A stretch of DNA of 64,000 bases from the IMG/VR virus record IMGVR_UViG_3300029537_000168. One strand, written 5' to 3'. Within the stretch, counting starts at the first letter, position 1; each line of letters starts with the position of its first letter. A program made the position numbers and the translations under genes. Source of the stretch: a virus (taxonomy: Duplodnaviria; Heunggongvirae; Uroviricota; Caudoviricetes). Below the pieces are notes generated by a model. It searched no databases and was not told where the DNA came from. It saw only the letters and a list, made by a program, of their open reading frames with translations. Positions 10,894 to 63,052 of the stretch are shown piece by piece.

Positions 10894-11176
10894 AAAACTC
10901 TCATCGAAGAAGGGAATCCCTGTTTTCCCTATCACGCCGCTAAATTACAAAAAATATTTATTTCCGAATAAAACGGATATGTTTTTTTGATAATTGAATG
11001 CTTATTTGCACTTTAAAACAATAAAAAGGGGAATATACCTCTCTTGGAAATATCCCCCTTTATGCATCTAATAATTCATTAAGAATTATAGCTGCAAATA
11101 TAGCTTTTTATTATGATTGACATTTTGTTTATGCTTAATTTTTAATATATTTATAGTGCATCTAATAATAATCATT

Positions 11177-12322
11177 ATGAATAAAATTAAGTATGAGCTT
11201 GTAACACATCGTGTACACGGAGGAATGCTAGCTATTTTTGTGAAATGTTCACAGTATGGTTCTGTAATAGAACTAGATACTAATGTCAGAGTGTTTAATG
11301 ACGAATGGAGTGAAGAATCCGGACTTATTTCTAAAAGTCCAAATGCCGCTAATCTTAACCTGCTAATCAGAAAACTTGTGTATAACCTGGAAGAGATTGA
11401 ACTAACTTATTCTGGAGAAATTACATTGTCTAAATTGCATGACATATATTCAAAACGTGGAGCTTCTGCAGACTGGTATGCAATGTGGGAAAAATCCATG
11501 AATGAAAGAGGGTTAAAACCTCAGACTATAGAAATACATGCAAATGTTTTGAAGACTATAAAAAAATTCAAAGGTTCTTGTCCTGTCATATCATTGACAG
11601 AGGATTTCTTCCGCGGATTCATGGGATTTTTAATTAATTCCGGACTTAAATATTCAACCGTATGCAAGGAAATGCATGTTGTTAAGACATATTATAATAT
11701 CGCACGTAAATTGTATGGGAATAAGGTTCCATCGGATGCATTCGCTTTTTACCATGATCCAAAAGACCTGAACAATACTTATAAACTGAAGTCGTTAAGT
11801 GATGATGACATACGTAAGATTGAGAATTATGTAGCATCTGGGACGTTATCAGAAAGTAAAAAGCTAACTATCAATCAATTCTTATTCATGAGCTATTCTG
11901 GAACTAGGATAAGTGATTTTGCTTCTCTCAACGAAAAGAGCTTCAAGTTGGAAAATGATCGGATTTGGCTTGAATATAATTCCGTAAAAACAAATACACA
12001 TGTCAGAATACCTCTTTTTGCTCTGTTTGATGGAAGAGGTGAGCAAATATATAGCCAGTATCAGAATCGGCTTTCAGAGTTTTTTTATGTGGGGAGCAAT
12101 TGCAGATTCAATTCAAGGTTATCTTCCGCTCTTAAAGGAAGTGGACTTAACAAGCATGTAACCGCTCACGTTGCAAGACATACTTGCGCAAGCAGATTGA
12201 TTAATAGAAATGTTCCTATAACTACAATACAGCAAGTAATCGGTCATAGACAAATAAAGACTACGATGATATATGCAAAGATTGACGACAATTCGTTTGT
12301 AAGACAATTAAAAGGATTGTAA
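11177..12322 (+). CDS. int: Tyrosine recombinase / phage integrase
   Basis: C-terminal catalytic region HVARHTCASRLI...IQQVIGHRQIKTTMIYAKI carries the R..H..R..Y signature. It is a lone plus-strand gene among minus-strand late genes. The real start is MNKIKYEL at 11177. Confidence 0.85.
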   Translation: MNKIKYELVTHRVHGGMLAIFVKCSQYGSVIELDTNVRVFNDEWSEESGLISKSPNAANLNLLIRKLVYNLEEIELTYSGEITLSKLHDIYSKRGASADWYAMWEKSMNERGLKPQTIEIHANVLKTIKKFKGSCPVISLTEDFFRGFMGFLINSGLKYSTVCKEMHVVKTYYNIARKLYGNKVPSDAFAFYHDPKDLNNTYKLKSLSDDDIRKIENYVASGTLSESKKLTINQFLFMSYSGTRISDFASLNEKSFKLENDRIWLEYNSVKTNTHVRIPLFALFDGRGEQIYSQYQNRLSEFFYVGSNCRFNSRLSSALKGSGLNKHVTAHVARHTCASRLINRNVPITTIQQVIGHRQIKTTMIYAKIDDNSFVRQLKGL

Positions 12323-21987: not shown

Positions 21988-22138
21988 AAATAAAAATCTA
22001 AATATTAATGCTTAAAATTATGATATAAGCAAATAGTATTCAGACTTTTTGAAATCAAAAACGAAACAACTTGGCAATTGTCGTGTAATTTAACTTCTAT
22101 TTTTGAATAATTAGACTCCATCTCGGAATAGAACAAAA

Positions 22139-22170
22139 AAGGCGCACCATTATGATGCGCCCGATTGTCA
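22139..22170 (-). terminator. Intrinsic terminator downstream of hicB (pair 1)
   Basis: ggcgca-ccattatga-tgcgcc hairpin followed on the minus strand by a T-run. Confidence 0.4.
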
Positions 22171-22211
22171 ATTTGTTCTTTAATTTATATCAGAGCCTCA
22201 CGGCTGGAATA

Positions 22212-22616
22212 TCAAAACTTGACATTTGCCATTCTTTTAAGTATCTCATTGTATTTTGATTGTATGATAGCTCTTTGCTTTTCTGATGCTGTAATTATCT
22301 TTCCTTTATACTTTCGCATTACAGATTCATTTATACCTATTTCCTTTGCAAACTTACTTGCATTAATAAAAGGGAACGCTTCAAAAAATCCACTTAAGTC
22401 ATACACATACTCCACAGAATAGCCAGCTTTATACCAACTTGGAAATTCACCATGTTTTTCTTTGTAATATTCTGCCTGTTCCTCTAAAACAGAAACAAAG
22501 TCCTCTTTCGCTTCTTGTTCTGTAAGCCCAAAGCCATACGCACCGTTTACATCTTCAGAATAGATAGAAATTCCTCCATCATCTGCTTTTTCAATAATAG
22601 CCTGAATCTTCTTCAT
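22212..22616 (-). CDS. hicB: HicB-family antitoxin (pair 1)
   Basis: 134 aa, with an RNase-H-like N-terminal part and a C-terminal HTH-like region. It lies directly downstream of a HicA-like ORF. Confidence 0.65.
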   Translation of the reverse strand: MKKIQAIIEKADDGGISIYSEDVNGAYGFGLTEQEAKEDFVSVLEEQAEYYKEKHGEFPSWYKAGYSVEYVYDLSGFFEAFPFINASKFAKEIGINESVMRKYKGKIITASEKQRAIIQSKYNEILKRMANVKF

Positions 22617-22674
22617 AATCGTGTATTTTAAGTTTTGTCAATTAAATGCACCCACCGAAGTGGGTGCTGTTCTT

Positions 22675-22860
22675 TTACTTCTTTAACCCCGCCTTTTTCA
22701 TCATGCTGTCAAGAGTACCTTTAGGTATCTCTTTGGCTGGATGTCTGCCTACAGGGATAAAGTAGTCAAAGTCGGGATGAACATACTTGTGATGTTTCTT
22801 TCCCTTTTCGATTGTCCAGCCTGCTGACTCAATCAATTTGTAAAACTCTGAAAACTTCAT
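22675..22860 (-). CDS. hicA: HicA-family mRNA-interferase toxin (pair 1)
   Basis: 61 aa, MKFSEFYKLIESAGWTIEKGKKHHKYVHPD...PVGRHPAKEIPKGTLDSMMKKAGL, matching the YcfA/HicA signature (GW..........H....P). Confidence 0.8.
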   Translation of the reverse strand: MKFSEFYKLIESAGWTIEKGKKHHKYVHPDFDYFIPVGRHPAKEIPKGTLDSMMKKAGLKK

Positions 22861-22978
22861 AAATCAAAGAACTTTTAATTGACAATGCAAAGGTAACATT
22901 TTCGTTACTATTAAGCAAGCTTTGTAACGTAAAAAAGTAACGTTTCTGTTGCTTTTTAACATTCTAATAGAGCCATAT

Positions 22979-30938: not shown

Positions 30939-32207
30939 TTAATGTCCAAATATTCCTGAAACGTCTTTGGGTTTCATAATTCTACCGAGAAGTTCTCCCA
31001 GCACATAGTAGCGTGCAGCATCTATGCCATGATTATCATGGTCTTCAGGTTTGTTGATGTAGTTTCCATCCTTATCTTTTGCCCAGACATAATTTCTGAA
31101 CTCCCTTTGCAGGTTATAAGAACGCTTGGTAATGAATATTTCCATTCCCTGCATCTTGTCAATACCGGCATTGACAGAACCTTGCCCTTTCTCTACCGCG
31201 TATATTTTAATCCCTCCGTTATGAATCTCCTGGATGAGTCGCGGGTCCGCACTGTCGGCAATCACTCTCAAATTCCACGGGCGTAGCGTCTTTATAATAT
31301 CCCCAGAAAGTAATCCAGTTCTATAATCCACTTCATCCAGATAAAGCGCATTGTCAATGATTCCACACCGGATAGAAGCCGATGGGTCATTGGTATAACC
31401 AAAGTCCTGTCCAATAGCCACTTTCTTGCACCACATGGGGAACTCGTCCACAATACCCCATTTCTTGAACACGGCACCTTCGGCCACGTCCGCCCATCGA
31501 CCGATAACCACATGAGCGTACTTCTCCGGATTCTTCTCTTTCATTTCCTTGACTTCTCTCAGGAACTCAGGAGAAAGGTTCTCTATATTGTCGAAGTAAG
31601 TCGTATGGATATGAAGTACATTCGGATGGGTGGAAATCTGTACCTGGACGCCGTCAATCTCCACCAGCCGGTGAGTATTCTCGATGTATTTCTTGTAGAT
31701 GAAATGGTTTGAATCGCATGGATTCATGATGATGATAATCCGGTTCTGGATTCCCTTTTTACGGATGGAGAGCATAATCTTGTCAAACTCGTCCTCACTG
31801 GTCCATTCCTCTGCTTCATCACAGACAAAGGTGGTGATACCCTGAATTGATTTCAACTTGGCCGTCTGGTTCCCTGAAGAGGTTTTGATACCACGGAACA
31901 TGATACGGCTGCCGGTCATCCGGTTTACTATATCGGTTTTGGTGGTCTTGAAATACTTCGTGGTTCCATCCAAATCTATCTTTTCCATCATTTCAGGAAT
32001 AATAGACATCCCGGCAGATACCATCGTGTAACGGGTATAAAGAATCTGGTGGACTATCTTCTCTGTGGGAGTCATCTCGAACGTCAGCCGCTCTATGAAG
32101 GTAGAAGCGTTGAAAGACTTTCCCGATCCACGGCCACCGGTAATGAGAATGATAAACTTCTCGCTATCGGTATATAACGGATGATATATCGCTTGGGGTA
32201 CAATCAT
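30939..32207 (-). CDS. terL: Terminase large subunit
   Basis: Walker A ILITGGRGSGKSF, with nuclease-domain acidic residues in the C-terminal half. Confidence 0.85.
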   Translation of the reverse strand: MIVPQAIYHPLYTDSEKFIILITGGRGSGKSFNASTFIERLTFEMTPTEKIVHQILYTRYTMVSAGMSIIPEMMEKIDLDGTTKYFKTTKTDIVNRMTGSRIMFRGIKTSSGNQTAKLKSIQGITTFVCDEAEEWTSEDEFDKIMLSIRKKGIQNRIIIIMNPCDSNHFIYKKYIENTHRLVEIDGVQVQISTHPNVLHIHTTYFDNIENLSPEFLREVKEMKEKNPEKYAHVVIGRWADVAEGAVFKKWGIVDEFPMWCKKVAIGQDFGYTNDPSASIRCGIIDNALYLDEVDYRTGLLSGDIIKTLRPWNLRVIADSADPRLIQEIHNGGIKIYAVEKGQGSVNAGIDKMQGMEIFITKRSYNLQREFRNYVWAKDKDGNYINKPEDHDNHGIDAARYYVLGELLGRIMKPKDVSGIFGH

Positions 32208-34827: not shown

Positions 34828-35928
34828 TTAAGCTGCCGATTTACTGTTTACTAAATCAAGTATAAACTTTCTACCAAGTTGCGTCCAACACAAGTATTGC
34901 TTTGCAACCTGCATACCAGTGGTATCACTTGTATAGGTGTGTGTCCTGTACTTGTCATAACCTAATCCCCTGTACTTGGCATAAAGCATGTAAACCCCAT
35001 TCTGGTTGTACAATACGCCTAAATCTTTTAATATCTTGTACAGCTTTTTGGCACTCATGCCAAGTTCGTTGGCTATGATATTTGTTGTTATCAATCCTTC
35101 GCTTTGAAGGACATTGTCGAAGTAGGCAGCTTTTGGCGCCATCAGTCTGTTCTGTTCTTCTACCAGATTCTTTTCGGTTTCAAGTACAGATATTCGTTCT
35201 TTCTGCCTTTCGATGGTTGAGTTTGCTAACAGGATGGCTTTTGCCATGATTTCTTCTGGCGTATCATCCGATTTTACTGCCATATAACCGCCTTTAGTTC
35301 GGATTTCTTTCAGTATGGCTTTTACGCCTTTCTTGAACTGTTTGGCTATTGGCTTGCGGCTTTGCATCAGGACTTCATATAAACCGCTCTCTGTCAGCAT
35401 CCAGACTTGACGGTTCTGACCTGACCGGAATAATGTTCCGACCAGCCTTTCATCTTCGTCTACTGTATTTACGAGTTTATTAAGGCTGCTTACATCGTAT
35501 TCAATCCACTCTGCTACATCTTTAGCAAGAAACAACGGATTCTCTGCATTGCCGTAAACGGTAAGTTCTTTACCTAATAAAGTTGTTCTCTGTAAAACCT
35601 GTATCTCATTCATATTTTTTGAATTTAAGTTACCAATCTGACTCTTTACACACTCTGTCAATTCTTTATTGTTTGCGAAATACATCAAAGCTATCCCGAT
35701 TTCTAGATACTGGCCGAAATACATGATTTCTCTTAGTTTCAATCCGTTTTCGGCTGCATACGTTTTTATTTGCAACATGTTCTTTGATTTCCATTCGCTT
35801 ATGCTTATCCCGACATCAGAATTAAGCCCCTTGCAAGAAATATATATCCTGCCATTGTAGGTACAATAAGAAATTTGCTTATCTTTGTACCGTATGAATT
35901 GGGATTCATTTATGGTTTCTTTGTTCAT
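34828..35928 (-). CDS. Phage antirepressor (Bro-N + KilA-C domains)
   Basis: Bro-N-like AENPLFLAKDVAEWIEY and KilAC-like YFDNVLQSEGLITTNIIANELGMSAKKLYKILKDLGV. The probable start is the second Met. Confidence 0.75.
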   Translation of the reverse strand: MNKETINESQFIRYKDKQISYCTYNGRIYISCKGLNSDVGISISEWKSKNMLQIKTYAAENGLKLREIMYFGQYLEIGIALMYFANNKELTECVKSQIGNLNSKNMNEIQVLQRTTLLGKELTVYGNAENPLFLAKDVAEWIEYDVSSLNKLVNTVDEDERLVGTLFRSGQNRQVWMLTESGLYEVLMQSRKPIAKQFKKGVKAILKEIRTKGGYMAVKSDDTPEEIMAKAILLANSTIERQKERISVLETEKNLVEEQNRLMAPKAAYFDNVLQSEGLITTNIIANELGMSAKKLYKILKDLGVLYNQNGVYMLYAKYRGLGYDKYRTHTYTSDTTGMQVAKQYLCWTQLGRKFILDLVNSKSAA

Positions 35929-36003
35929 ACGCTGTAAAACCTGAATTAAACATATCCTCATTGATGGCCGGTCAATTCATCAATGAGGATTTTATTTTGA
36001 CCG

Positions 36004-36272: not shown

Positions 36273-36608
36273 TTACATTGCAGTTTTCATCATGTTTGGA
36301 TTAAAGCCTTGCATAAGATTACCTTCGCAGTCAAAAAAGGTGTCTTCTCGTAGCAGACTACCAATAAGTTCATTTGCAAGCCTAAATATCGGGTAAACTT
36401 CATCATTAGAGTCTATCATGCCATCTTTACAACATTTCTTTTCACTCAGAGAACGCAACAGCCAAAGTGTTTTCATGTAATACTGGTATTTTTCGGGGTT
36501 GTTGAACATTCGTTTTAATAACATAATGTTTGATTCAGTTATTACTGTTTCTTGTTTGTTAGTAAATGTTATCTTGTGCAATTCAGGATTAAAGTCTATA
36601 ATTCTCAT
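36273..36608 (-). CDS. Hypothetical protein
   Basis: 111-aa ORF. Confidence 0.45.
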   Translation of the reverse strand: MRIIDFNPELHKITFTNKQETVITESNIMLLKRMFNNPEKYQYYMKTLWLLRSLSEKKCCKDGMIDSNDEVYPIFRLANELIGSLLREDTFFDCEGNLMQGFNPNMMKTAM

Positions 36609-36634
36609 AAGTCATATTCTTTTAAATGTTAATA

Positions 36635-36961
36635 CTAAGCTATCTTTATAAGGTTGCATTTTTTGAAACAACGCCATTCTTCTTTTTCACAATCGAAATA
36701 CACCTGGCAGTTATCTGCTGTTTTCTTTGTACCCTTTGTCTCTGGTATTCTGCCACTCATTAAAGTACCGAAAGCCTGACGCAGTGTGCCGTCTGTTTTC
36801 TTGAAATAGAACTCAACCACCTTCTTATGAAGCAATGCACGAAGTTTGATATTAGTCCAAGCGCATTTCAATGCTTCACTCATTGAATAACCGTTCTTGC
36901 GTACAAATGACCAAGCAAGGTTCATAATCTCTTTTAATAGGTTTCTCTTTTCTGTTGCCAT
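36635..36961 (-). CDS. Conserved small basic protein, paralog A (about 60 % identical to 59171..59494)
   Basis: Both copies contain KCAW.N.KL, FYFKK.DG, QVYFD and RCFKK.NL. Confidence 0.55.
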   Translation of the reverse strand: MATEKRNLLKEIMNLAWSFVRKNGYSMSEALKCAWTNIKLRALLHKKVVEFYFKKTDGTLRQAFGTLMSGRIPETKGTKKTADNCQVYFDCEKEEWRCFKKCNLIKIA

Positions 36962-37009
36962 AGTTCTTATATTTATTAGTTCTTTAAATGCTGTTTAAAT
37001 TTTATGCTG

Positions 37010-37089
37010 CAAATATAATTGATATTTAAATTATAGAACAAGCTTTCATAGTTAATAAAATCTAAATATAAAATTGATATTTAAATTAT
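37010..37089. promoter_or_regulatory. Two direct repeats of about 24 bp (aaatataa(a)attgatatttaaattat) in a divergent intergenic region
   Basis: Copies at 37010..37034 and 37064..37089, each containing the palindromic atttaaat. They lie between the paralog A gene and a plus-strand HTH gene. Confidence 0.5.
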
Positions 37090-37140
37090 TTGCTTATTAT
37101 TTAAATAGTAGATATTTTTGTGCTATAAAACTAAATTTAA

Positions 37141-37386
37141 ATGAGAATTAAAGAATTGTTGCGAGAAAAAGGAATTACCGCAAAAGAACTGGCTTCTAAA
37201 ATCGGTATGACTGAAACTGGGTTAAGTATCGCTATGGGAGATAATGGAAACCCACCATTAAAGAGATTAGAACAGATTGCCACCGCTTTAGGTGTGCCAG
37301 TAACAGAACTCTTTGATAAACCCAAAGAGGGAGTTATACACTGTCCTCACTGCGGTAAGGAGATAAAATTGAATCCGAATGTTTAA
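37141..37386 (+). CDS. XRE-family HTH regulator with a C-terminal CxxC zinc ribbon (Cro-like)
   Basis: MRIKELLREKGITAKELASKIGMTETGLSIAM...CPHCGKEI. Confidence 0.7.
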   Translation: MRIKELLREKGITAKELASKIGMTETGLSIAMGDNGNPPLKRLEQIATALGVPVTELFDKPKEGVIHCPHCGKEIKLNPNV

Positions 37387-37402
37387 TTTTAAATTTAGAA
37401 TT

Positions 37403-38062
37403 ATGAGAAAAATACTATTTATTTTATTGCCCACGTTTTTACTTGTGGGCTGTAAATCTCGCGAAGAAAAGGTAGCAGAACTTATAAAACAAGAAATGTT
37501 CAAAACCCTTTATGATTTTGAGAGTTATGAACCTGTTGAAACTAAAATAGATAGTGCATTTACATCTATATATACAGATTCAGTAATCAAATCTTATGCT
37601 TATATAGCACGCTCATTTCTCGATGACGTACAAGAAGGACTTGATAAAGTAAAAGATGCGCAAAGAACAGCAGAAATATGGAGAGATAGCTATTCATCTT
37701 ATGGGAGGGGCAAGTATGAAGAAGCATACAATGAAATGAGAGAACATTTAGATGAAGTTAAATCAAAAATGAGTATTGTAAATGGTTATACAGATTCAAT
37801 AAGAAATGCTTCTGTTGGCTTTAAACCTGAATTTTGCGGATGGAGGGTTAAACATAGATTTAGATGTAAAACCAAAGGTGGTAATTTTGATTTAGGCGAT
37901 TATATTTATATTGTTGATAAAAGAGTAACTAAAATTATATATAAAGAAGACCCTGATGATGAATATACTAAAAAAGTAAATGGGTTAATTGAAGAAGCTG
38001 TTAGTTCAAAAAATGAACAGGAAGAAACTGATAGTGTTAGTGGTGCAACATCAAATATTTAA
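37403..38062 (+). CDS. Lipoprotein
   Basis: MRKILFILLPTFLLVGCKS signal peptide plus lipobox, in an AT-rich segment. Confidence 0.6.
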   Translation: MRKILFILLPTFLLVGCKSREEKVAELIKQEMFKTLYDFESYEPVETKIDSAFTSIYTDSVIKSYAYIARSFLDDVQEGLDKVKDAQRTAEIWRDSYSSYGRGKYEEAYNEMREHLDEVKSKMSIVNGYTDSIRNASVGFKPEFCGWRVKHRFRCKTKGGNFDLGDYIYIVDKRVTKIIYKEDPDDEYTKKVNGLIEEAVSSKNEQEETDSVSGATSNI

Positions 38063-38140
38063 ACACGATTATTCCAGCCCCGTTCCTTATGGTTCGGGGC
38101 TTTATCCTCTAAGAATCAAAATAGAGAAAGGAAAATAACC

Positions 38141-38689
38141 ATGACAACAAACGAAATAGACAAATTAAGCCTTGAAAAAGCCCATGCCTTATTTGAAACA
38201 GGTGATATAGATAAAATTGGAGTAGGAACGGTGAAAGGATTGTGCGAGATTCACCGCTACTTGTTCGATGGCTTGTATGACTTTGCCGGAAAGGTACGTA
38301 CATTGAACATCGCCAAAGGAAACTTCCGTTTTGCCAACTGCTTGTATCTTGATGCAATTCTCCCGGTTATAGAGAAGATGCCGGAAACGACATTTGATGA
38401 AATCATTGCCAAATATGTGGAAATGAATATCGCCCATCCATTTATGGAAGGCAACGGGCGAGCCACCCGTATTTGGCTGGATATGATATTGAAAAAACGT
38501 CTGAAAAAAGTAATAGACTGGCGCAATGTGGATAAAAACCTGTATCTACAAGCTATGGAACGCAGCCCTATAAATGATTTGGAACTCCGGGTATTGTTGC
38601 AACAGGCATTAACAGACCAAGTAGATGACCGTGAAGTAATATTCAAGGGGATTACTCAATCTTACTATTATGAGGGATATGAAGCATAA
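38141..38689 (+). CDS. fic: Fic-family protein, class III (C-terminal inhibitory helix), putative AMP-transferase
   Basis: Catalytic motif [12 protein letters not shown] matches HPFx[DE]GNGR. The C-terminal [11 protein letters not shown] matches the [ST]xxxE[GN] inhibitory motif, and 182 aa is the NmFic size class. Confidence 0.8.
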
Positions 38690-38692
38690 AAC

Positions 38693-38728
38693 TAAAGCCG
38701 GAAGCATAACGCTCCGGCTTTTCTACTT
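38693..38728. terminator. Bidirectional terminator between fic and the KilA-N gene
   Basis: agccgga-agcataacgc-tccggct hairpin followed by a T-rich run. Confidence 0.5.
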
Positions 38729-38738
38729 TTGTAATATT

Positions 38739-39398
38739 TTATCCAGCATTAGCAAAGACCTTTGGATAGTTCCTTTTCTGGTATTGAATTCTCAGATACC
38801 CAATAAGGCTTTCATAGTCGGTCAAGAAACCTTCATTGACCAAATCAGCAATCTTCTTTTCAAGCTGCCACAATTCACGTTGTTTTTGTTCCTCACCATG
38901 CTTATTACGTAGCATCTTTTCATGACTGTTGAAGATAACCCAGTTCAAGGCTTCACCGACCTTCTGCATGGCTTTAGGCATAAAGTCTTTGGGAACGATT
39001 TTCATGATGGCAGAAGAGAGTTCCCTATAAGCGTCCCCAGCATCATTCCGGTAACGAATCATTTGGTCAGAAACGAATTTGATTACATCATATTTGAATG
39101 ACGCATTTAGCCACATAGCCAAATCAATGAACAATACAGGATGAACCCAGGTTCCACCGCATTTACCACGTGAACTTAAATAGGGAGAATTTTGCCCATT
39201 TAGATTTTCTTTTTCAACGATGGTAGCGATTAATTCCTTGGTTGATTCATTTTCAAAGTATTTCTTCAATTCTTTGTTTGAGGAGTTTCGTTCGTTCCAT
39301 AACTTTACAAGCCTGGTAGCATTGAAATAGCCGTCAACGGTGCGTTGAATAACTTCTAAATTTCCCATTTGCCTTACCATTTCTTGATTTGTTTTCAT
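38739..39398 (-). CDS. KilA-N domain protein
   Basis: N-terminus LEVIQRTVDGYFNATRLVKLW is KilA-N-like. Confidence 0.65.
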   Translation of the reverse strand: MKTNQEMVRQMGNLEVIQRTVDGYFNATRLVKLWNERNSSNKELKKYFENESTKELIATIVEKENLNGQNSPYLSSRGKCGGTWVHPVLFIDLAMWLNASFKYDVIKFVSDQMIRYRNDAGDAYRELSSAIMKIVPKDFMPKAMQKVGEALNWVIFNSHEKMLRNKHGEEQKQRELWQLEKKIADLVNEGFLTDYESLIGYLRIQYQKRNYPKVFANAG

Positions 39399-41555: not shown

Positions 41556-42110
41556 TTACCGTACCAGTCTAACTGGTAATTTAAATCCGCAAAACACGCC
41601 AATTTTTGAGTTGCTACTAGAAGTGAGACATGCACTCGTTTTATAATTAGCCTTATTATCATTTAACAACCAAAAATAGGAAGAATCTTGATTCATAATA
41701 ACATTAAAACCAATCTTACCCGTTTTATTAAAAGTCATCATAGTGCCATTAACACCAAGAAAATACACTCCACTGTATTGGTTAAGATCATCCTTAAAAC
41801 CTCTTCTCAAACAAGCTAATATCAACTCATTATATTGTTCTATTGTTGGTATTTTATATTGCAAAGCTTCATCATAAGTAAAATAACAGATTTCTCCATT
41901 TTCATCTCTCAAATAATCAGATGCCCATAAAGTCCCGCTCGACAAACCAAGGTCAACAAATTCCGCATCATTACATCCTATTTGAGCATTTTCTTGACCG
42001 CTCTTATAACCATCTTTGTATCCATCTATATATGCCTGAGCAATGGCCTTTGTTATAGCTTCATTTGCTTTCCCATCAGCATAAGAGTTTGCTTTTTCTT
42101 GAATATCCAT
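41556..42110 (-). CDS. Hypothetical protein
   Basis: 184-aa ORF with the motif AYIDGYKDGYKSG. Confidence 0.45.
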   Translation of the reverse strand: MDIQEKANSYADGKANEAITKAIAQAYIDGYKDGYKSGQENAQIGCNDAEFVDLGLSSGTLWASDYLRDENGEICYFTYDEALQYKIPTIEQYNELILACLRRGFKDDLNQYSGVYFLGVNGTMMTFNKTGKIGFNVIMNQDSSYFWLLNDNKANYKTSACLTSSSNSKIGVFCGFKLPVRLVR

Positions 42111-42320
42111 ATTAGTTCAAATTATCATAGTTTACACTTGTTACAAACTTCGTAAGTTTTGTTTGAATGAACAAATAAAAAGGAAAATTTTATCCATTTA
42201 AGCCCATTATGATTTGTCTAGAATTATAATCACGATTATGTGTTTATAACTTATTTATTTTTATTTGTTGATTCTCATATTTTACTTATAATTTTGTTGA
42301 AACGATACAAACTTATAGTT

Positions 42321-43733
42321 ATGGAACTTATACCAATAAAAAACGAACTTAAATCTTTCAAAGACCATCTTGATATTAACGAACGTACCGTTTTCTCAGC
42401 CAAATTTGGAGACGGGAAAACATACTTTTTAAATGAATTCAAAAAGAAATATGGAGATAGTTATGAATTTATTACCATATATCCGGTTAATTATCAGATA
42501 GCTGATAATAAAGAGGTTTTTGAGTATATTAAAAGAGATATTCTTATACAAATGGTTTCAAAGAAAATGATAGAGCCATCTTATGAAATCCCTGATTCAC
42601 TAATATTCCAATTCTTTATTATGCAGAATTCTGACTCATTCTTGGGTAATCTATTAAAAATACTACCAAGTCTAGGTGTTCCAGAACAAACAGCATCTCT
42701 TTTCTTAGCTGGATACCATGCTTTAAATTGGTCGAAAAAGATGGCTAAAAAATATAAAGAATATAAGGACGCAATTCAAAGCCAAGATGAGAATCAAATT
42801 ATAGCAACCTTTTTAGAATCTTTTTCAAAGAGAATAGGAAGTCCTTATGAGATTGATTTAATCACTCAAATTATAATTGATAATATTCAATGGTTCTGTA
42901 AAAGCAACAACAAAAAAGTTATTTTAATCATCGAAGACTTGGACCGTATGGATCCTGCTCATCTATTCAGAATTTTAAATATTTTCTCTGCACATATTGA
43001 CAGAGTATACCAATATCAAAACAGTAGTACTCAAAAAGAAGAAGATACTACATATTCAGAATTATTGCCAAATAAATTTGGATTTAACAATATCATAACA
43101 GTATTTGATTATAATAAAACTAAAAGTATTTTCCAGCATTTTTATGGACAAGAGGCTAACTATGATGGTTATATCAACAAATTCACATCCCATCAACCAT
43201 TTTTCTATTCTATAGATGAAATAGCACGTGAATATTTATATAAAGTTATATCTGAAAAATGTTGCATAACAAAAGAATCTATCAGGCATATTTCAAAACA
43301 AATTAACAACAAATTTGATTCATTGTCAGTAAGAGATGTAAATACGATTTTAAACGGAATAGATTTATATATTCAAGAAGATATTTACAAATCAGGCACT
43401 ACGGAATTTAATACAAAGTCTCCTCTAACTTATACTATTGCAATGTTTAAACTATTAGGTTACTCAAATACAGATATCAGGAGATATATTTTAAGCTTGT
43501 CAAAATCGGATTTATTAAACTGTATAAATGTGTTTTTATATATCCGTCCAGATGTTTCAGCTAATTCCTTTACATTTCATGATATATCATATATTATTAG
43601 AATTCCTTCAAGCGATACTATCAATAAAATTCAAATAAAACCTGGGCATGACCATAGTGGATTTCATTTAATATTAACAGAAGATGATATAAATAAATGT
43701 TTAGACAGAGCATTTGATTATATCATCAAATAG
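42321..43733 (+). CDS. KAP-family-like P-loop NTPase (candidate abortive-infection / defence moron)
   Basis: Walker A FSAKFGDGKTYF and Walker B KVILIIEDLDRMDP (the DLDR signature of KAP NTPases). It is extremely AT-rich compared with its neighbours, and its orientation is opposite to the surrounding genes. Confidence 0.6.
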   Translation: MELIPIKNELKSFKDHLDINERTVFSAKFGDGKTYFLNEFKKKYGDSYEFITIYPVNYQIADNKEVFEYIKRDILIQMVSKKMIEPSYEIPDSLIFQFFIMQNSDSFLGNLLKILPSLGVPEQTASLFLAGYHALNWSKKMAKKYKEYKDAIQSQDENQIIATFLESFSKRIGSPYEIDLITQIIIDNIQWFCKSNNKKVILIIEDLDRMDPAHLFRILNIFSAHIDRVYQYQNSSTQKEEDTTYSELLPNKFGFNNIITVFDYNKTKSIFQHFYGQEANYDGYINKFTSHQPFFYSIDEIAREYLYKVISEKCCITKESIRHISKQINNKFDSLSVRDVNTILNGIDLYIQEDIYKSGTTEFNTKSPLTYTIAMFKLLGYSNTDIRRYILSLSKSDLLNCINVFLYIRPDVSANSFTFHDISYIIRIPSSDTINKIQIKPGHDHSGFHLILTEDDINKCLDRAFDYIIK

Positions 43734-45376: not shown

Positions 45377-45894
45377 TGATTATTTCTCCTTCTTTCAACT
45401 AATAATTCCAACCGTTTCTCACACTCAGCACACTCGATTTTCTTGCGCTCAAACTTCTCCCGGAACTTAACAAGCTCCTCATCCGTGTTCTCATCAAAGA
45501 ACATGTTGTTCTGACGGTTGTGCTCGATGTACTCATTCATCTTGCGTTCTGCTTTTGTTATCTGGGCTTTGGCCGAAATCAGCTTAGACAGGCAAGAACT
45601 CACTTCAAGCGACTCTCCTGAACGCTTGTCGTAGAAGTACAGGCTTGTAGATACAATCTGTTTGGGGTATTGGCACTGTAATTTCGCCATCCTCCATCTG
45701 ATTACCCATTGGTACCGGAAATACATCTCACGGGGAAGATTGTAGTGATATAAGCTTACTTGTTTTTCTGCATATCCGTAGTAAATAGTTACTTCAACCC
45801 ATTGCTCAATCTTCAGTTCCCTTTCAGCTTTGGCCAAATCCTTAGCCATCTGGAACCAGTCATCCATACTTTCCTGCTTTCCCATATCATTCAA
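45373..45894 (-). CDS. Hypothetical protein
   Basis: 173-aa ORF with a C-terminal CAECEKRLE. Confidence 0.45.
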   Translation of the reverse strand: MNDMGKQESMDDWFQMAKDLAKAERELKIEQWVEVTIYYGYAEKQVSLYHYNLPREMYFRYQWVIRWRMAKLQCQYPKQIVSTSLYFYDKRSGESLEVSSCLSKLISAKAQITKAERKMNEYIEHNRQNNMFFDENTDEELVKFREKFERKKIECAECEKRLELLVERRRNNQ

Positions 45895-57917: not shown

Positions 57918-57939
57918 AGTTTAAGTATTTGATTGTTTG

Positions 57940-58015
57940 CTGGCAGAACGGGACTCGAACCCGTGACTTCCATGCTAACCCTTACATGGTGTTCTACCGC
58001 CTGAACTATCTGCCA
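57940..58015 (-). tRNA. tRNA-like gene with canonical acceptor, D and T arms but an enlarged anticodon loop (8-10 nt)
   Basis: Acceptor tggcaga/tctgcca is a 7-bp stem, D-arm is gttc-aggcggta-gaac, T-arm is acggg-ttcgagt-cccgt. The anticodon region is ccatg-taagggttag-catgg, which can also be drawn as a 6-bp stem with an 8-nt loop. Confidence 0.5.
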
Positions 58016-58259: not shown

Positions 58260-58919
58260 GTCTATTCTTTTTAATGTTTTTTATTTCCGTTTCTATCTCC
58301 TTATCAAATAGCTCCCGTCTGTCCAGTTCCCGTGAGCGTGCCGTCAGAATGGCACTGATGTCCGCAAATTCATCACAGATGCTTTTTATTGTTTCTTGCA
58401 GCTCGTTCATTGTCCAGTCTGTTTGCGATTGAAAAACCAGTGATTATAAACCCGACAAATCCTATCCAGTACATAGCAGACAGGTCTTGATTGAAGTGCA
58501 TTACCAGAACGGACAATGCACAGAGAAAAAGTAGTATTTTCATAACCGTGTGTATTAAATATCGTTCCCGTGGGCGTTCCGGTGGTTGCCTTACTGCTTA
58601 TCAAAGGTCTGGTAAGCCACGGGTATATATAGTTCATGCTGGTGTCTAATCAGTGAAGATTGTCTTTGTAGCCGACCTACGGCCACCTGCAATCGTATAA
58701 GTGTCTTTTTGTTATCTGTGTGATTCGTATGCTGCGTTTGCTTAGTGCAGCCCTTTACTCATACTCTTTTCACACAGCCGTTATCGCTACTCAGTCGTCC
58801 GTTTCACGTCAGGCTTAACGGTAAGCCTAAATTTCCATCATGTCAAAGAACCAATCAAGTAGAACCCTGCCCGATTCTCGCTATCGGTTGCCGTTCAGTC
58901 CGTCAGCAGGGTAGGTGAG

Positions 58920-59174
58920 TTACCAGCGTGTAACTGCCATGCCTTGTGATAACTGAAGGTTAATGTAGTCCATGCCATCATCTTCAGGCAGGTTGTATTC
59001 TTCAAGAAGGGCTTCGTATTTGTCCACCTCTTCAGTAAGTACTTTGATGTATTCTTGCTTGCTGTCAGCATTGAAAGCCCTGCATAAAGTCTCTTCATCT
59101 GCGTTGTAGGCGAAGTTCAGGTCTTTGTACAGCCCGTCAAGTTCTTCTTCGATTTCGTGGCGTGTCATAGTCAT
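58920..59174 (-). CDS. Hypothetical acidic protein
   Basis: 84-aa ORF, translationally coupled to paralog B. Confidence 0.4.
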   Translation of the reverse strand: MTMTRHEIEEELDGLYKDLNFAYNADEETLCRAFNADSKQEYIKVLTEEVDKYEALLEEYNLPEDDGMDYINLQLSQGMAVTRW

Positions 59175-59494
59175 GCGGCGATGTTTAAAAGGTTAGCTTT
59201 CTTGAAGCATCTGTATTCTTGTCTCTCAGTATCGAAGTACACCTGAACAGTGTCATTCTTCTTTCTGCTTTCACCAGATGTGGCTGGTATCAGATTTTCT
59301 TTCAGCGTGCCGTAGGCTTCACGAACAGAACCATCTACCTTTTTGAAGTAGAACTTTACGATTCTTTGCTTCATGGCAGCTTTCAGCTTCATGTTTGCCC
59401 AAGCGCATTTCATCGCTTCACTCATAGAGAAACCGTTTCTCTTTACCAACTGCCATGCAAGACTCATAATCTCGTGTAATAAATTCTTTTTCAT
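59171..59494 (-). CDS. Conserved small basic protein, paralog B
   Basis: About 60 % identical to 36635..36961. The 15-nt motif ataatcgtgtgaggg abuts its start codon. Confidence 0.55.
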   Translation of the reverse strand: MKKNLLHEIMSLAWQLVKRNGFSMSEAMKCAWANMKLKAAMKQRIVKFYFKKVDGSVREAYGTLKENLIPATSGESRKKNDTVQVYFDTERQEYRCFKKANLLNIAA

Positions 59495-59651: not shown

Positions 59652-60191
59652 ATGAAGAAAGATAATTGGGCGTTAGGATTAGGTATAGCCTCAATAGTGA
59701 CAAGTTTTATATCTATAATGCTATGGCTATGTAAATATGAACCTATAACATGGACTTTGCTGGATACTATAATGACCATGCTTTCTTTAATAGTGGCGAT
59801 TATCTCCGTCCTTTTTGCATTTAATATGTTTGGCCTGAGAAAGGAGCTTAAAAATGAGATAGATGAAAAATTGAAGGAGATAAGCGACAATCATGTAATT
59901 CATACTGCTAAAACCATGATGTACATGGAAATGCGTTTGTTGCATTTAGCAACCGAATTGAGTAAAATTGACGATATAAGACAGTCTATTTACATGATGC
60001 TTGATACAACAGAAAAAACTAAAAATAAGAAAGATGTGGATTATATTATTAACCAGTTAAGAGAGCTTGAAAAACGTTATGGAGACAGATTGTTCGATGA
60101 TACATTCAAAGGGAAACTAAGGATTAGACTGGAGAAAGTTACCTCTTTCTCTGACAGTGCTCTTCTCTTCCTTCAAAATTTCAAGGTATGA
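59652..60191 (+). CDS. Membrane protein (2 TM helices plus coiled-coil cytoplasmic domain); possible exclusion/immunity function
   Basis: 179 aa, AT-rich, lying between the two operator copies next to the repressor. Confidence 0.45.
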   Translation: MKKDNWALGLGIASIVTSFISIMLWLCKYEPITWTLLDTIMTMLSLIVAIISVLFAFNMFGLRKELKNEIDEKLKEISDNHVIHTAKTMMYMEMRLLHLATELSKIDDIRQSIYMMLDTTEKTKNKKDVDYIINQLRELEKRYGDRLFDDTFKGKLRIRLEKVTSFSDSALLFLQNFKV

Positions 60192-60518
60192 TTCTTTTGC
60201 GTGGTCGATGATTTTATCCGACTCTTCAAAAGGATTCCTAGGTCCTTGAGGTTCTTGATGATGCATAGGTTTGATACACAAAATCTTTAAATCATCATAA
60301 GACGACATAGAAGTCTTAGAGTCTTTAGAATCATTAGTACTCTTTGAATCCTTAGAAAACATAGAATACTTATCCATGCCAAGCAATGGGAGTAATACTT
60401 TTGTCCAAACAAGTATCACAGTCACGCATATAAGTATAAACAAGAGTAATAGCAGAACTTTAAACATAAAAGAACAATAACCATAGTAAAAACACCCACA
60501 ATAGGTACGAGCTATCAT
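60117..60518 (-). CDS. Hypothetical small membrane protein
   Basis: 133 aa with a hydrophobic N-terminus, convergent with the previous gene. Confidence 0.3.
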   Translation of the reverse strand: MIARTYCGCFYYGYCSFMFKVLLLLLFILICVTVILVWTKVLLPLLGMDKYSMFSKDSKSTNDSKDSKTSMSSYDDLKILCIKPMHHQEPQGPRNPFEESDKIIDHAKESYLEILKEEKSTVRERGNFLQSNP

Positions 60519-60600
60519 GGGTGTATATATTAAACCTCCTCGGAGGAATGTTTAACCAACTTGTTCCTTTAACACCTCGTACTTGTTACGGTACAAAGAT

Positions 60601-60626
60601 ACTTTATAATTCTAAAGTATCAAATA
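60601..60626. promoter_or_regulatory. Second operator copy (actttataattctaaagtatcaaata)
   Basis: Identical 26-mer to 59561..59586, located 15 nt upstream of the repressor start codon. Confidence 0.6.
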
Positions 60627-60640
60627 CAAGCTTTAAAATT

Positions 60641-61354
60641 ATGGGAATTATTGAAAGATTTTTTGAAAGTATTGAAAAAGCAGGAATTTCTTCTTACGAA
60701 ATTGAAAAGAAATACGGAGTTAAATCTGCTCAATCTAAACTTTCACAATTAAAGGAAGGAAAGACTAAAAGTGGAAAAGAAAAAACTCTCCCATCTGATT
60801 TATTATCTGCTGTATGTTCTGCAAGAGAAGATATTAATCCAGATTATATTTTAACTGGTCGCGGAACTCCATTGCGTCAGCAACCTGAAGTTACTCAAAT
60901 ATTTCACCCAAAGAGCATAGAAAAAGCTGAAGAAGATGGATTGATAACCCTTTATGATGTTGAAGCTGCTGCAAACTTGAAATCCCTCTTCGATAACAAA
61001 GACCAGAATATCCTTGGACAAATCAATATTCCAAATATCCCTAAATGCGATGGAGCTGTTTATGTCAAAGGGGATTCCATGTATCCATTACTTAAATCTG
61101 GTGACATCGTAGCATATAAGGAGGTACCTTTAGAAATGAGTCATATTTTCTTTGGAGAAATGTACCTTGTGTCAATAGATCTGGATGGAGATGAATACTT
61201 AACTGTAAAATACGTCCAGCATTCAGAAAAAGGTGAAGACTGGATAAAACTGGTAAGTTACAATCAAAACCACCAACCCAAAGATTTTCCATTATCTTCT
61301 GTGAGAGCTATGGCTTTGGTAAAATTGAGTATTAGAATGAACACAATGAAATAA
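60641..61354 (+). CDS. CI/LexA-like repressor (HTH plus S24 peptidase domain)
   Basis: The C-terminal domain contains VYVKGDSMYPLLKSGDIVAYKEV (Ser-Lys dyad context). The N-terminus is HTH-like. The probable start is MGIIERFF. Confidence 0.75.
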   Translation: MGIIERFFESIEKAGISSYEIEKKYGVKSAQSKLSQLKEGKTKSGKEKTLPSDLLSAVCSAREDINPDYILTGRGTPLRQQPEVTQIFHPKSIEKAEEDGLITLYDVEAAANLKSLFDNKDQNILGQINIPNIPKCDGAVYVKGDSMYPLLKSGDIVAYKEVPLEMSHIFFGEMYLVSIDLDGDEYLTVKYVQHSEKGEDWIKLVSYNQNHQPKDFPLSSVRAMALVKLSIRMNTMK

Positions 61355-61355
61355 T

Positions 61356-62603
61356 ATGGGACTTTATTTTAGGAAAAGGGTGAAGATTCTTCCTGGAGTG
61401 CATTTAAACATAAGCAAAACAGGGACAAGTTGGTCTGTTGGTCCGCGTGGAGCTTCAGTGAATGTGGGTAAGAGAGGAGTTTATGTGAATACCGGGATAC
61501 CAGGAACTGGTATATATTCTCGGACTAAAATATCGGGAGGTAGTAGTAACTATGATAGAGATAAACATTATTCTTCTAAGCGTGAACAAGAAAATGAAGC
61601 AATTAATAGCAATCCGTTGAGGTTTATTTTGACATTTCTGTTTTTACTGGCTTCAGTAATGATTCCGTTACTTACAAGTGCTTCATGGATTTGGTTTCCT
61701 ATACTCGCCTTAATTGGAATTTGTTGTGCTTTTATTCCTGATAGTAAAACGGAAGCTAATAATTTAAACTATAATGCTGATAAAGTAGAACCTATCCATA
61801 TAATCCCGGATAAAGTTATAAACATATCAGAAGAGAAATACGTATCTGAAAATACTTCTACTCTAAAAGAAAATGAGTCTCATAGAGAAGAAAATATTTT
61901 AAAGGATTCCGTGATACATAAATTAGATCCATTATTTGAAGAATCGGCTCGTTTGGTCGTGAATCAGCAGCAAGGAAGTACTTCTCTTCTTCAGCGTAAA
62001 CTTATAATAGGATATAATAGGGCAAGAAGGATAATGGGATTACTTGAGAAAGCTGGGATTGTTGGACCAGCAAATGGAGCAAACCTTCATGACGTGCTTT
62101 GTAAGGATGAAGTTGAGTTGGCTGAGAGGTTAGAAAACCTGAGTGATGACATGTTCCAAGAAACAACAAAAGATACTAATATAGAGGATAATTTTGATAA
62201 GAGTTCTCGGCTTGTTAATATTGGAATTGATTTAGAAAAAGAAGGAATGATTGATGAAGCTATTAATGTGTATGAGAAATCAATCATTTACAGATTACCG
62301 CTTAAGCACCCATACGAGAGACTTGCTATCCTTTACAGAAAAAGAAAAGATTATGAGAATGAAATCCGAGTTATAAAAATTGCAATAGAAGTCTTCATGA
62401 AAGAAAATGAGAGAAGAGCCAATATGGTAATTGATGAGGATAATTCTATGTATAATCAAGTAATGCAAGCATTAGAGACCAACGAAAGTATTAAGTATGA
62501 AGATGGGAAATGGGCTTTCGTTCAATATGATGTCATGAGTTATATAACAAGACTAGAAAAGGCACAAACTTTACTTGATAAATCAAAAAACAAAAAGGAA
62601 TGA
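61356..62603 (+). CDS. DUF4236 + FtsK-gamma-like winged-helix + TPR-like protein
   Basis: N-terminus GLYFRKRVKILPGVHLNISKTGTSWSVGPRG (DUF4236-like), then STSLLQRKLIIGYNRARRIMGLLEKAGIVGP (FtsK gamma-like), with two TM helices between them. Confidence 0.5.
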   Translation: MGLYFRKRVKILPGVHLNISKTGTSWSVGPRGASVNVGKRGVYVNTGIPGTGIYSRTKISGGSSNYDRDKHYSSKREQENEAINSNPLRFILTFLFLLASVMIPLLTSASWIWFPILALIGICCAFIPDSKTEANNLNYNADKVEPIHIIPDKVINISEEKYVSENTSTLKENESHREENILKDSVIHKLDPLFEESARLVVNQQQGSTSLLQRKLIIGYNRARRIMGLLEKAGIVGPANGANLHDVLCKDEVELAERLENLSDDMFQETTKDTNIEDNFDKSSRLVNIGIDLEKEGMIDEAINVYEKSIIYRLPLKHPYERLAILYRKRKDYENEIRVIKIAIEVFMKENERRANMVIDEDNSMYNQVMQALETNESIKYEDGKWAFVQYDVMSYITRLEKAQTLLDKSKNKKE

Positions 62604-63052
62604 GAAGAGTATTGACTTTGTTGATGGGATTGTTCTTTTTCTGCACATTTCATGCACAAGAAGTAGTAAGATATGTAACGGCAAACCTAAATTTAAGAGA
62701 TTCTCCTGATGTAACATCTTCTATTATTACTCAGATTCCTAGAGGTACTGCAGTTCTAATTGATGAGGATTGTGATTGCAAATGGATTCCTGTTAGTTAT
62801 AATGGGTATATTGGATATGTTTCAACGAAGTATCTTTCAAAAGAAAAAGTTTATTATTCTTCTGAAAATCATTCATCAGGACAAATAAGATATTATACTA
62901 ATTCTAGAGGTGAGAGAGTTCAGTCTCCTACATATTATTCTTCTGCACCTCCTGGGGCAACTGCTTTATGCAGAGATGGAACATATAGTTTTAGTAAAAG
63001 CCGTAGAGGAACTTGCTCTCATCATGGTGGTGTTGCAAAATGGTTAAAATAG
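62600..63052 (+). CDS. Secreted SH3b + DUF3761 protein
   Basis: Signal peptide, SH3_3-like VTANLNLRDSPDVTSSIITQIPRGTAVLIDE, and DUF3761-like C-terminus CRDGTYSFSKSRRGTCSHHGGVAKW. Confidence 0.5.
   Translation: MRRVLTLLMGLFFFCTFHAQEVVRYVTANLNLRDSPDVTSSIITQIPRGTAVLIDEDCDCKWIPVSYNGYIGYVSTKYLSKEKVYYSSENHSSGQIRYYTNSRGERVQSPTYYSSAPPGATALCRDGTYSFSKSRRGTCSHHGGVAKWLK

Follow-up and report, generated by a model that had tools for sequence, protein, structure and literature searches.

NmFic of Neisseria meningitidis (PDB 2G03, 3S6A, 3ZLM, 5CGL) is a class III Fic protein that is blocked by a glutamate of its C-terminal helix and by tetramerization, and whose monomer auto-AMPylates Y183 and Y188 and then AMPylates Tyr109 of GyrB (PMC12894286; PMC6408439). 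Class III Fic enzymes can also deAMPylate, a reaction that the conserved glutamate supports in EfFIC of Enterococcus faecalis, whose target is not known (PMC6408439); unlike NmFic, which is controlled by dilution, EfFIC is regulated by the Mg/Ca ratio. A class III Fic protein on a mobile element also has a precedent, i.e., Fic4 of Campylobacter fetus, which is carried by an integrative and conjugative element (ICE) and has been proposed to interact with other Fic proteins (PMC5651007). Here we describe an NmFic-type gene in the IMG/VR virus record IMGVR_UViG_3300029537_000168 (Duplodnaviria; Heunggongvirae; Uroviricota; Caudoviricetes), analyzed as a single stretch of 64,000 nucleotides (nt) that we refer to as the window. 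At positions 37141-38689 the listing of open reading frames (ORFs) places three plus-strand ORFs among minus-strand phage genes, encoding an XRE-type helix-turn-helix (HTH) regulator, a lipoprotein and a Fic protein (Table 1); all long neighboring ORFs are on the minus strand, in line with the orientation opposite to the phage early genes that the initial annotation had described. What is new is the context: in abundant Bacteroidales prophages, an accessory slot headed by an HTH gene has an NmFic-type gene as its constant distal cargo.

The Fic protein passes the NCBIfam equivalog model for NmFic (NF046029, ProtAdlyltaseNmFic; cut-off 230 bits) with 305.5 bits over model positions 2-177 of 177, and matches the Pfam Fic family at 4e-11. 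Our search of the PDB gave NmFic as the top match (2g03 at E = 8e-85; 2g03 and 3s6a at about 1e-84 over the full length), followed by the class III proteins of Helicobacter pylori (PDB 2F6S, 1e-77) and E. faecalis (9e-74), with FICD at 1e-4; in the NCBIfam and PDB searches the class I protein VbhT was matched at only about 1e-11 to 1e-13. Global alignment with NmFic shows 71.5% identity and zero internal gaps. The canonical HPFxEGNGRxxR motif, which had been called intact, occupies residues 99-110, with the catalytic H99 aligned to NmFic H107, and the inhibitory helix S174-YYY-E178-G179 (SYYYEG, residues 174-179; by reading of the sequence the sole [ST]xxxE[GN] in the protein) corresponds column for column to NmFic S182, E186 and G187. 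Using residue roles taken from PMC12894286 and the PDB 5ckl variant, we also find the auto-AMPylation tyrosines Y183 and Y188 of NmFic at Y175 and Y180, and its tetramer-interface glutamates E102 and E156 at E94 and E148. Among 121 distinct homologues from genomes and viral contigs, the S, Y, E, G and Y of the helix and the H, E and E are unchanged wherever the alignment covers them; homologues that seemed to lack the helix, aligned only to residue 174, were a tblastn artifact, and direct translation shows SYYYEGYE in all of them.

Taken together, by every feature that can be judged from sequence this is an orthodox single-domain class III NmFic-type protein, for which AMPylation is predicted, and the class III assignment of the initial annotation holds, both the catalytic histidine and the C-terminal motif being positionally equivalent to those of NmFic. 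A Doc-type fold, the alternative raised there, would bring a kinase-type motif with a deviating active-site loop and a Phd-type antitoxin, and does not agree with the canonical AMPylation motif, with best matches that are all class III Fic proteins, or with the lack of an adjacent Phd-like gene. We also rejected a class I FicTA module, the inhibitory helix being present in cis, the upstream HTH protein lacking an [ST]xxxE[GN] motif, and most homologues standing alone. The identification of the enzyme is not itself new: the exact protein is RefSeq WP_117747692.1, already correctly named “protein adenylyltransferase Fic”. Between phage copies, the ratio of nonsynonymous to synonymous substitution (dN/dS) of Fic is 0.03-0.06 at dS 0.4-0.65, and the protein is therefore functional in phages.

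Compared with described systems, the window protein shares with NmFic the single FIC domain of about 180-190 amino acids (aa), the motif, the SYYYEG helix, the tyrosines and the interface glutamates; unlike the NmFic gene, which is on a proteobacterial chromosome, its gene follows a phage HTH gene in a Phocaeicola prophage, and its activity, oligomeric state and target are predicted. EfFIC and H. pylori Fic are of the same class and fold and match over the full length, and are more distant from it than NmFic is. As with C. fetus Fic4, the gene is on a mobile element, and related phage loci carry a class II Fic gene directly upstream of the class III gene; unlike Fic4, which is on an ICE, it is in a phage, and the window has no second Fic gene. 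Fic AMPylases of the SoFic and PDC-S04 kinds have been shown or proposed to cause abortive infection, SoFic being a validated defense system (PMC12249575), and the window protein fits the PADLOC model for PDC-S04 (PDLC04842) over its full length (E = 1.1e-95, 317 bits). SoFic differs in being a larger, multi-domain class II protein that targets EF-Tu and has a small antitoxin, and its model matches the window protein only at E = 0.005; PDC-S04 is a candidate defense label only, with one negative test. The Fido-fold toxins Phd-Doc of phage P1, FicTA and VbhTA also cause growth arrest and are found on mobile elements. FicT and VbhT AMPylate GyrB/ParE, and Doc gives a prophage “death on curing”. 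In contrast to the window protein, which has its helix in cis and no evident antitoxin gene, these toxins need a separate antitoxin that supplies the inhibitory helix.

To describe the surroundings of the gene, the window proteins were compared by tblastn with 160 Fic loci, 80 each from species-representative genomes and IMG/VR (loci are cited below by L number). In the viral contigs, an HTH homologue 33-69% identical to that of the window nearly always lies upstream of Fic on the same strand, often with a divergent WYL_2 gene beyond it. The commonest arrangement, seen at 38 related loci, has the HTH gene next to Fic, only 6-93 nt away. Elsewhere the slot between the two genes is filled by RhuM (333 aa), a class II Fic (256-261 aa), ORF6N, DUF2442 or unknown proteins, and among the closest relatives (Fic 96% identical) it is occupied by one of three mutually non-homologous envelope proteins: a 268-aa lipoprotein, a 241-aa membrane protein or a 334-aa secreted protein. 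Immediately before the Fic start, the window retains a relic of the 3′ end of an HTH gene, homologous in DNA alignment to the end of the intact HTH gene that abuts Fic in L110, L111 and L116, and also aligned with L112; consistent with this, a 49-aa ORF at 37989-38138 ends in residues resembling the end of the HTH gene. Since this relic and the hairpin at 38075-38101 are shared with L112, whose cargo gene differs, we infer an ancestral HTH-Fic bicistron into which cargo was recombined between the two genes.

Two slot partners recur directly before class III Fic in related phages, i.e., a class II Fic with an N-terminal SNRIEGN helix and an HPFIDGNGR motif, or RhuM, and RhuM is also directly upstream of Fic in a Capnocytophaga chromosome; class II Fic-Fic and RhuM-Fic look like recurrent two-gene combinations. 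In bacterial genomes, homologues 69-88% identical to the window Fic are found in many phyla (L020-L099: Bacteroidota, Firmicutes, Proteobacteria, Campylobacterota, Chlorobiota, Elusimicrobiota and Verrucomicrobiota), mostly alone among housekeeping genes, and at least 562 stretches in species-representative genomes encode a relative, a conservation that is unusually high for a small accessory protein. A location of these standalone genes in type I restriction-modification operons was considered and set aside, the flanks that we sampled being housekeeping genes or RhuM.

The lipoprotein gene has a different history. Read from its more probable start, the protein begins MRKILFILLPTFLLVGC, a signal peptide with the lipobox LVGC, and it has no match in Pfam, NCBIfam or PADLOC. 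We found 241 homologues, all unnamed and all in Bacteroidales, which form a well conserved family with a nearly invariant lipobox cysteine. The AlphaFold2 model (predicted local distance difference test score, pLDDT, 82) has a small sheet and a long helical hairpin, and the structure search gave no function, its matches being weak and including NTF2-like proteins. At least 6 other prophage architectures include a homologue and have no Fic gene nearby (Table 1), and lipoprotein and Fic are found together only in this phage type and in contig L117, so that co-conservation of the two, a check that the initial annotation had proposed, is contradicted. The lipoprotein gene has a GC content of 30.8%, in the lowest 4% of windows of this phage, where the average is 41%. 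Because of this foreign composition and the Fic-less contexts, we conclude that the gene is, on sequence grounds, an independent, separately acquired AT-rich moron; its orientation and own signals, deviant base composition, and presence or absence among related phages are all those of a moron, while Fic shows the orientation, the downstream terminator and the patchy presence, with a GC content like that of the phage. The operon as a whole had been described as AT-rich, which applies to the lipoprotein gene and the intergenic region (15.6% GC) but not to the HTH gene (39%) or Fic (40.4%), both of which match the phage average.

The trio had also been credited with terminators of its own, and hairpins are indeed present 3′ of both the lipoprotein gene and Fic. 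The first of these has a poor T tract and received no call in the terminator scan, and it may terminate transcription between the two genes only weakly or in part. The second was called as a terminator on the minus strand, with 10 pairs, and its plus-strand fold of -16.7 kcal/mol is followed by TTTTCTACTTTT.

Residues 1-60 of the HTH protein form an XRE/Cro-C1 domain (Pfam HTH_26 at 9.2e-09 and HTH_3 at 1.8e-08, both above cut-off), and the protein matches PHROG repressor and regulator families; a profile search of the PDB matched SinR, 434 repressor and C-proteins through residues 4-63 only. The C-terminal tail has a single I-x-C-P-x-C-G knuckle (C66-P-H-C69), which is invariant in the homologue alignment, and the longer pattern I-x-CPxCG-x-x-hydrophobic-x-hydrophobic-K is kept in 43 of 47 distinct HTH homologues. 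Of the zinc ribbon that had been proposed, this one conserved CxxC knuckle stands; the two knuckles with four ligands that define a ribbon are not there, and Zn_ribbon_3 scores 19.6 bits against a cut-off of 27. We speculate that the CPxCG knuckle might mediate zinc-dependent dimerization. HTH homologues are 33-69% identical whereas Fic stays at 78-97%, a faster divergence that is as expected for an immunity-type repressor. The family also heads Fic-less cargo in L012/13, L193 and the isolated Bacteroides phage BS-TP2, where a 55%-identical HTH precedes gp63-HigB-XRE (HigBA), again facing WYL_2.

Between the HTH gene and the leftward WYL_2-p111-ANT operon lies a divergent control region with two 22-nt direct repeats, ATAWAATTGATATTTAAATTAT, at 37013-37034 and 37068-37089, spaced 55 nt apart. 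Their 18-mer core, AATTGATATTTAAATTAT, is present in exact form at 37017 and 37072 only in the whole window, with one 3-mismatch match at 45886. Chance does not account for this, about 0.25 matches being expected at up to 3 mismatches and 0 of 100 shuffles giving 3, and the operator-like direct repeats reported beside the block can therefore be accepted. The core repeat TTGWTATTTAAATT is retained, as two copies of TTGTTATTTAAATT, beside a 97.5%-identical HTH in L010/L104, where the leftward genes differ. The Bacteroides promoter consensus has TTTG at -33 and TAnnTTTG at -7; candidate boxes were read from the sequence against it (Table 1), a sigma-70 promoter scan being uninformative for Bacteroidota. 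Repeat 1 overlaps the candidate leftward -7 box and repeat 2 abuts the candidate rightward -33 box, a layout that would fit a repressor acting at divergent promoters. The arrangement resembles lambda cI-rexAB and P22 immI mnt/arc-ant, in that a small repressor-type gene is divergent from an ANT operon, with repeated operator-like sites and co-oriented accessory genes; it is an analogy of layout only, without sequence relationship, the leftward operon here starting with WYL_2/DUF2693 and the operator being putative.

The window also encodes an integrase (11117-12322), a helicase and an S24-peptidase repressor-like gene (60521-61354), from which we take the setting to be a temperate phage or prophage, and exact copies of the proteins are found in RefSeq in Phocaeicola plebeius, P. 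vulgatus and P. coprocola. We favor, with moderate confidence, a reading that takes the block for the cargo, or moron, region of a temperate Phocaeicola phage, composed of three independently evolving parts, with Fic as a growth-arrest switch of the lysogen. The HTH protein would be the backbone regulator of the lineage, most likely binding the two 22-nt repeats over the leftward promoter and beside its own; it would keep the WYL_2/DUF2693-p111-antirepressor operon off in the lysogen and regulate itself, like Mnt in P22 immI. The genes 3′ of it would form a cargo slot expressed in the lysogen, occupied here by an envelope lipoprotein that is probably a lysogenic-conversion or superinfection-exclusion factor. 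Fic, the constant distal cargo, would by homology be kept inactive by tetramerization and by Glu178 in its C-terminal helix; in the monomer, auto-AMPylation of Tyr175 would free the helix, after which the enzyme would AMPylate the ATP-lid tyrosine of GyrB/ParE and DNA replication would stop. For the lysogen, the outcome would be an antitoxin-free growth arrest, i.e., abortive infection against an incoming phage or “death on curing” addiction.

The sequence data show the identities of the genes, the equivalence of the residues, the architecture, the comparative pattern and the purifying selection on Fic; lysogen expression, binding of the operator, gyrase as the target in Phocaeicola, the trigger and the biological pay-off are the steps that we infer here. 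Placement on the lysogeny side is favored by lipoprotein homologues directly behind S24/CI-like repressors or HTH genes, with integrases adjoining, and by HigBA behind the homologous HTH of BS-TP2; the link between HTH and operator is favored by repeats that are specific to the intergenic region and by a core that follows the HTH gene into a different left-hand context. A toxin or abortive-infection role for Fic is plausible. We put forward more tentatively, as rather unlikely, that Fic is made at a low level from the repressor-side operon, is harmless by virtue of helix and tetramer, and becomes a gyrase poison once its concentration or oligomeric state shifts upon prophage loss or infection by another phage.

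Several points weigh against the lysogen growth-arrest switch. Expression in the lysogen is deduced from position and orientation only, and the hairpin at 38075-38101 may terminate or attenuate transcription before it reaches Fic. The HTH protein is not the main immunity repressor and its target is putative, because the phage has a separate S24-type region at 59.2-61.4 kb. In the one native-host test of a PDC-S04 gene that we found in the literature, there was no defense (bioRxiv 10.1101/2024.12.20.629700). Most bacterial NmFic-like genes stand alone among housekeeping genes, so a general cellular role unrelated to phages is possible, and since class III enzymes are also deAMPylases, the net activity of Fic in vivo could run either way.

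Other explanations of the block were weighed against the same data. The trio is fixed within this phage type, being kept in 10 of 10 distinct contexts found via the exact WYL_2 protein and in 10 of 10 found via the exact Fic, the closest relatives also have an envelope protein between HTH and Fic, and in viral contig L117 an 88%-identical Fic is preceded, at a distance of about 1 kb, by a 54%-identical lipoprotein, all of which would suit a dedicated system in which the three proteins cooperate, e.g., through a sensor or immunity function of the lipoprotein toward the Fic toxin. Such a co-evolved three-gene operon, as the initial annotation had it, is largely refuted by the comparative data and is very unlikely: the lipoprotein family occurs elsewhere without Fic, the slot is empty in 38 HTH-Fic loci and 80 bacterial Fic loci have no lipoprotein, the envelope proteins of close relatives are unrelated to one another, the lipoprotein gene is foreign in GC content, and an HTH relic separates it from Fic. 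If only HTH and Fic belong together, they might be a toxin-antitoxin-like pair, with HTH as a dedicated autoregulator or neutralizer of Fic rather than a regulator of the phage backbone. The two genes are tightly coupled across 33-69% HTH divergence (6-54 nt apart in 36 of the 38 adjacent loci, and 2 nt from HTH stop to Fic start in L110), SoFic has a small partner antitoxin (PMC12249575), and the HTH protein has weak matches to PADLOC models, e.g., capH and control proteins. We nevertheless judge this quite improbable, as a class III Fic has its own inhibitory helix, no HTH homologue was detected at about 70 of the 80 Fic loci from bacterial genomes, HTH genes of this family also precede cargo that lacks Fic, HigBA in BS-TP2 included, and the HTH gene and its repeats stand in a phage-switch-like manner at a divergent promoter facing WYL_2-ANT.

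Fic could instead act in the lytic cycle, as a host-takeover or counter-defense enzyme that modifies gyrase or another host protein for phage replication. PDC-S04-type genes have been reported in Fusobacterium phages FNU2 and FNU3 (PMC12632247), the HTH protein could be Cro-like and not repressor-like, and a class III Fic is a reversible AMPylase/deAMPylase; against this, no lytic gene shares the strand of Fic, the slot in which it follows a repressor-type gene holds toxin-antitoxin toxins and envelope proteins in relatives, and lipoprotein homologues at this position follow CI-like S24 repressors, which makes a lytic role unlikely. That Fic might be a neutral passenger that does nothing for the phage at present would agree with the negative native-host test of PDC-S04, but is extremely improbable, being already contradicted by the strength of purifying selection given above, by the conservation of all catalytic and regulatory residues in the homologues examined, and by the presence of the exact protein in 3362 blocks of the assembly collection.

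Table 1. Features of the HTH-lipoprotein-Fic block, its surroundings in the window, and related loci elsewhere
Feature	Position	Strand	Remarks
HTH regulator	37141-37386	+	81 aa
Lipoprotein ORF	37379-38062	+	227 aa; start more probably 37403, giving 219 aa
Fic	38141-38689	+	182 aa
Divergent control region	36962-37140		179 nt, 15.6% GC; between leftward WYL_2-p111-ANT operon and rightward HTH gene
Candidate rightward -33 TTTG	37089-37092	+	Read from sequence against Bacteroides consensus
Candidate rightward -7 TATTTTTG	37113-37120	+	Read from sequence against Bacteroides consensus
Candidate leftward -7 TATATTTG	37017-37010	-	Read from sequence against Bacteroides consensus
Hairpin AGCCCCG...CGGGGCT	38075-38101	+	-18.2 kcal/mol, poor T tract; 3′ of lipoprotein gene
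Relic of HTH gene 3′ end	38106-38140	+	35 nt directly before Fic start
Hairpin	38694-38721	both	Between convergent Fic (+) and KilA-N (-); intrinsic-terminator-like
WYL_2 gene	36635-36961	-	Pfam
Bro-N/ANT antirepressor	34828-35961	-	Pfam
KilA-N gene	38739-39398	-	Pfam
Large terminase	30939-32207		Pfam
Lipoprotein homologue	L014-16, L196-197		Behind S24 repressor, integrase adjoining; no Fic
Lipoprotein homologue	L193		Behind HTH facing WYL_2; no Fic
Lipoprotein homologue	L192		Behind HTH-DUF4160-DUF2442; no Fic
Lipoprotein homologue	L012-13		HTH-HNH-...-HigB-like array; no Fic
Lipoprotein homologue	L194-195		End of plus-strand array including SH3_3/DUF3761 gene; no Fic
Lipoprotein homologue	L017-19		Lone opposite-strand gene among tail genes; no Fic
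Class II Fic/RhuM slot examples	L156 1171-1941; L036 3189-3971; L165 3194-3979; L176 3236-3997; L130 1129-2130; L046 2987-3997		

With respect to the rest of the phage, a megablast search with 25 kb of it against 50,697 GenBank phages gave 1-3% coverage, and there is therefore no annotated close relative among them to borrow from; an NmFic-type gene is present in 2 of these 50,697 records. Rfam found no RNA element in 36500-38800, even at E up to 1, and no RNA motif at the first WYL_2 switch (36.9-37.1 kb). A second WYL_2/DUF2693 gene, at 59171-59494 (-), heads the leftward early operon and faces a rightward region (59652-61354, +) with a 179-aa ORF and the S24-peptidase repressor-like gene, and directly 3′ of it is a DUF2693-FD RNA (58864-58912, -; Rfam, 76 bits against a gathering score of 44.5). 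Because two WYL_2 genes each face a regulator, the phage has two paralogous switch regions. The early region also contains a tRNA gene at 57939-58015 (-; Rfam, 52 bits), for which ARAGORN gives a four-base anticodon (gggt) and assigns no amino acid. To the left of the integrase, a 490-aa reverse transcriptase is encoded at 106-1578 (-; Pfam RVT_1, 5.5e-15), for which Rfam found no intron RNA.

Further cargo was observed elsewhere in the window. A stretch at about 22135-22921, inside the structural-gene region, has 83% DNA identity to the HicA/HicB toxin-antitoxin genes of BS-TP2 and is a second toxin-type cargo. A few kb rightward of the block, at 41556-43733, is a second variable cargo spot with a 184-aa ORF (-) and a 497-aa ORF (+), neither with a match in Pfam or PADLOC; in other variants the same spot (L001 9547-12504; L009 9464-10972) encodes a 985-aa HD-CE/HATPase_c protein or a 502-aa protein with a faint KAP-NTPase match. 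An SH3_3/DUF3761 protein is encoded at 62600-63052 (+), in the rightward array after the S24 repressor-like gene, and in the L194/L195 prophage a gene with the same domain (L194 2519-2962) directly precedes a gene for a member of the window lipoprotein's family; identical cargo types, SH3_3/DUF3761 and lipoprotein genes, appear to recur in different orders.

For Bacteroidales phages, these findings mark the part of the backbone in which WYL_2 faces an HTH gene that is followed by cargo as an accessory-gene hot spot. The structure and biochemistry of class III Fic proteins are understood and their biological purpose is still the question; with more than 3000 assembly blocks, strong purifying selection and a slot for toxins and envelope proteins, this phage type offers a tractable setting in which NmFic-type proteins can be tested for defense or addiction. 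If Fic does become a gyrase poison upon a shift in its concentration or oligomeric state, such an antitoxin-free switch would provide the long-missing physiological role of class III Fic proteins, and would explain both an identity of at least about 70% across phyla and the presence of Fic in a toxin and defense slot of abundant gut prophages.

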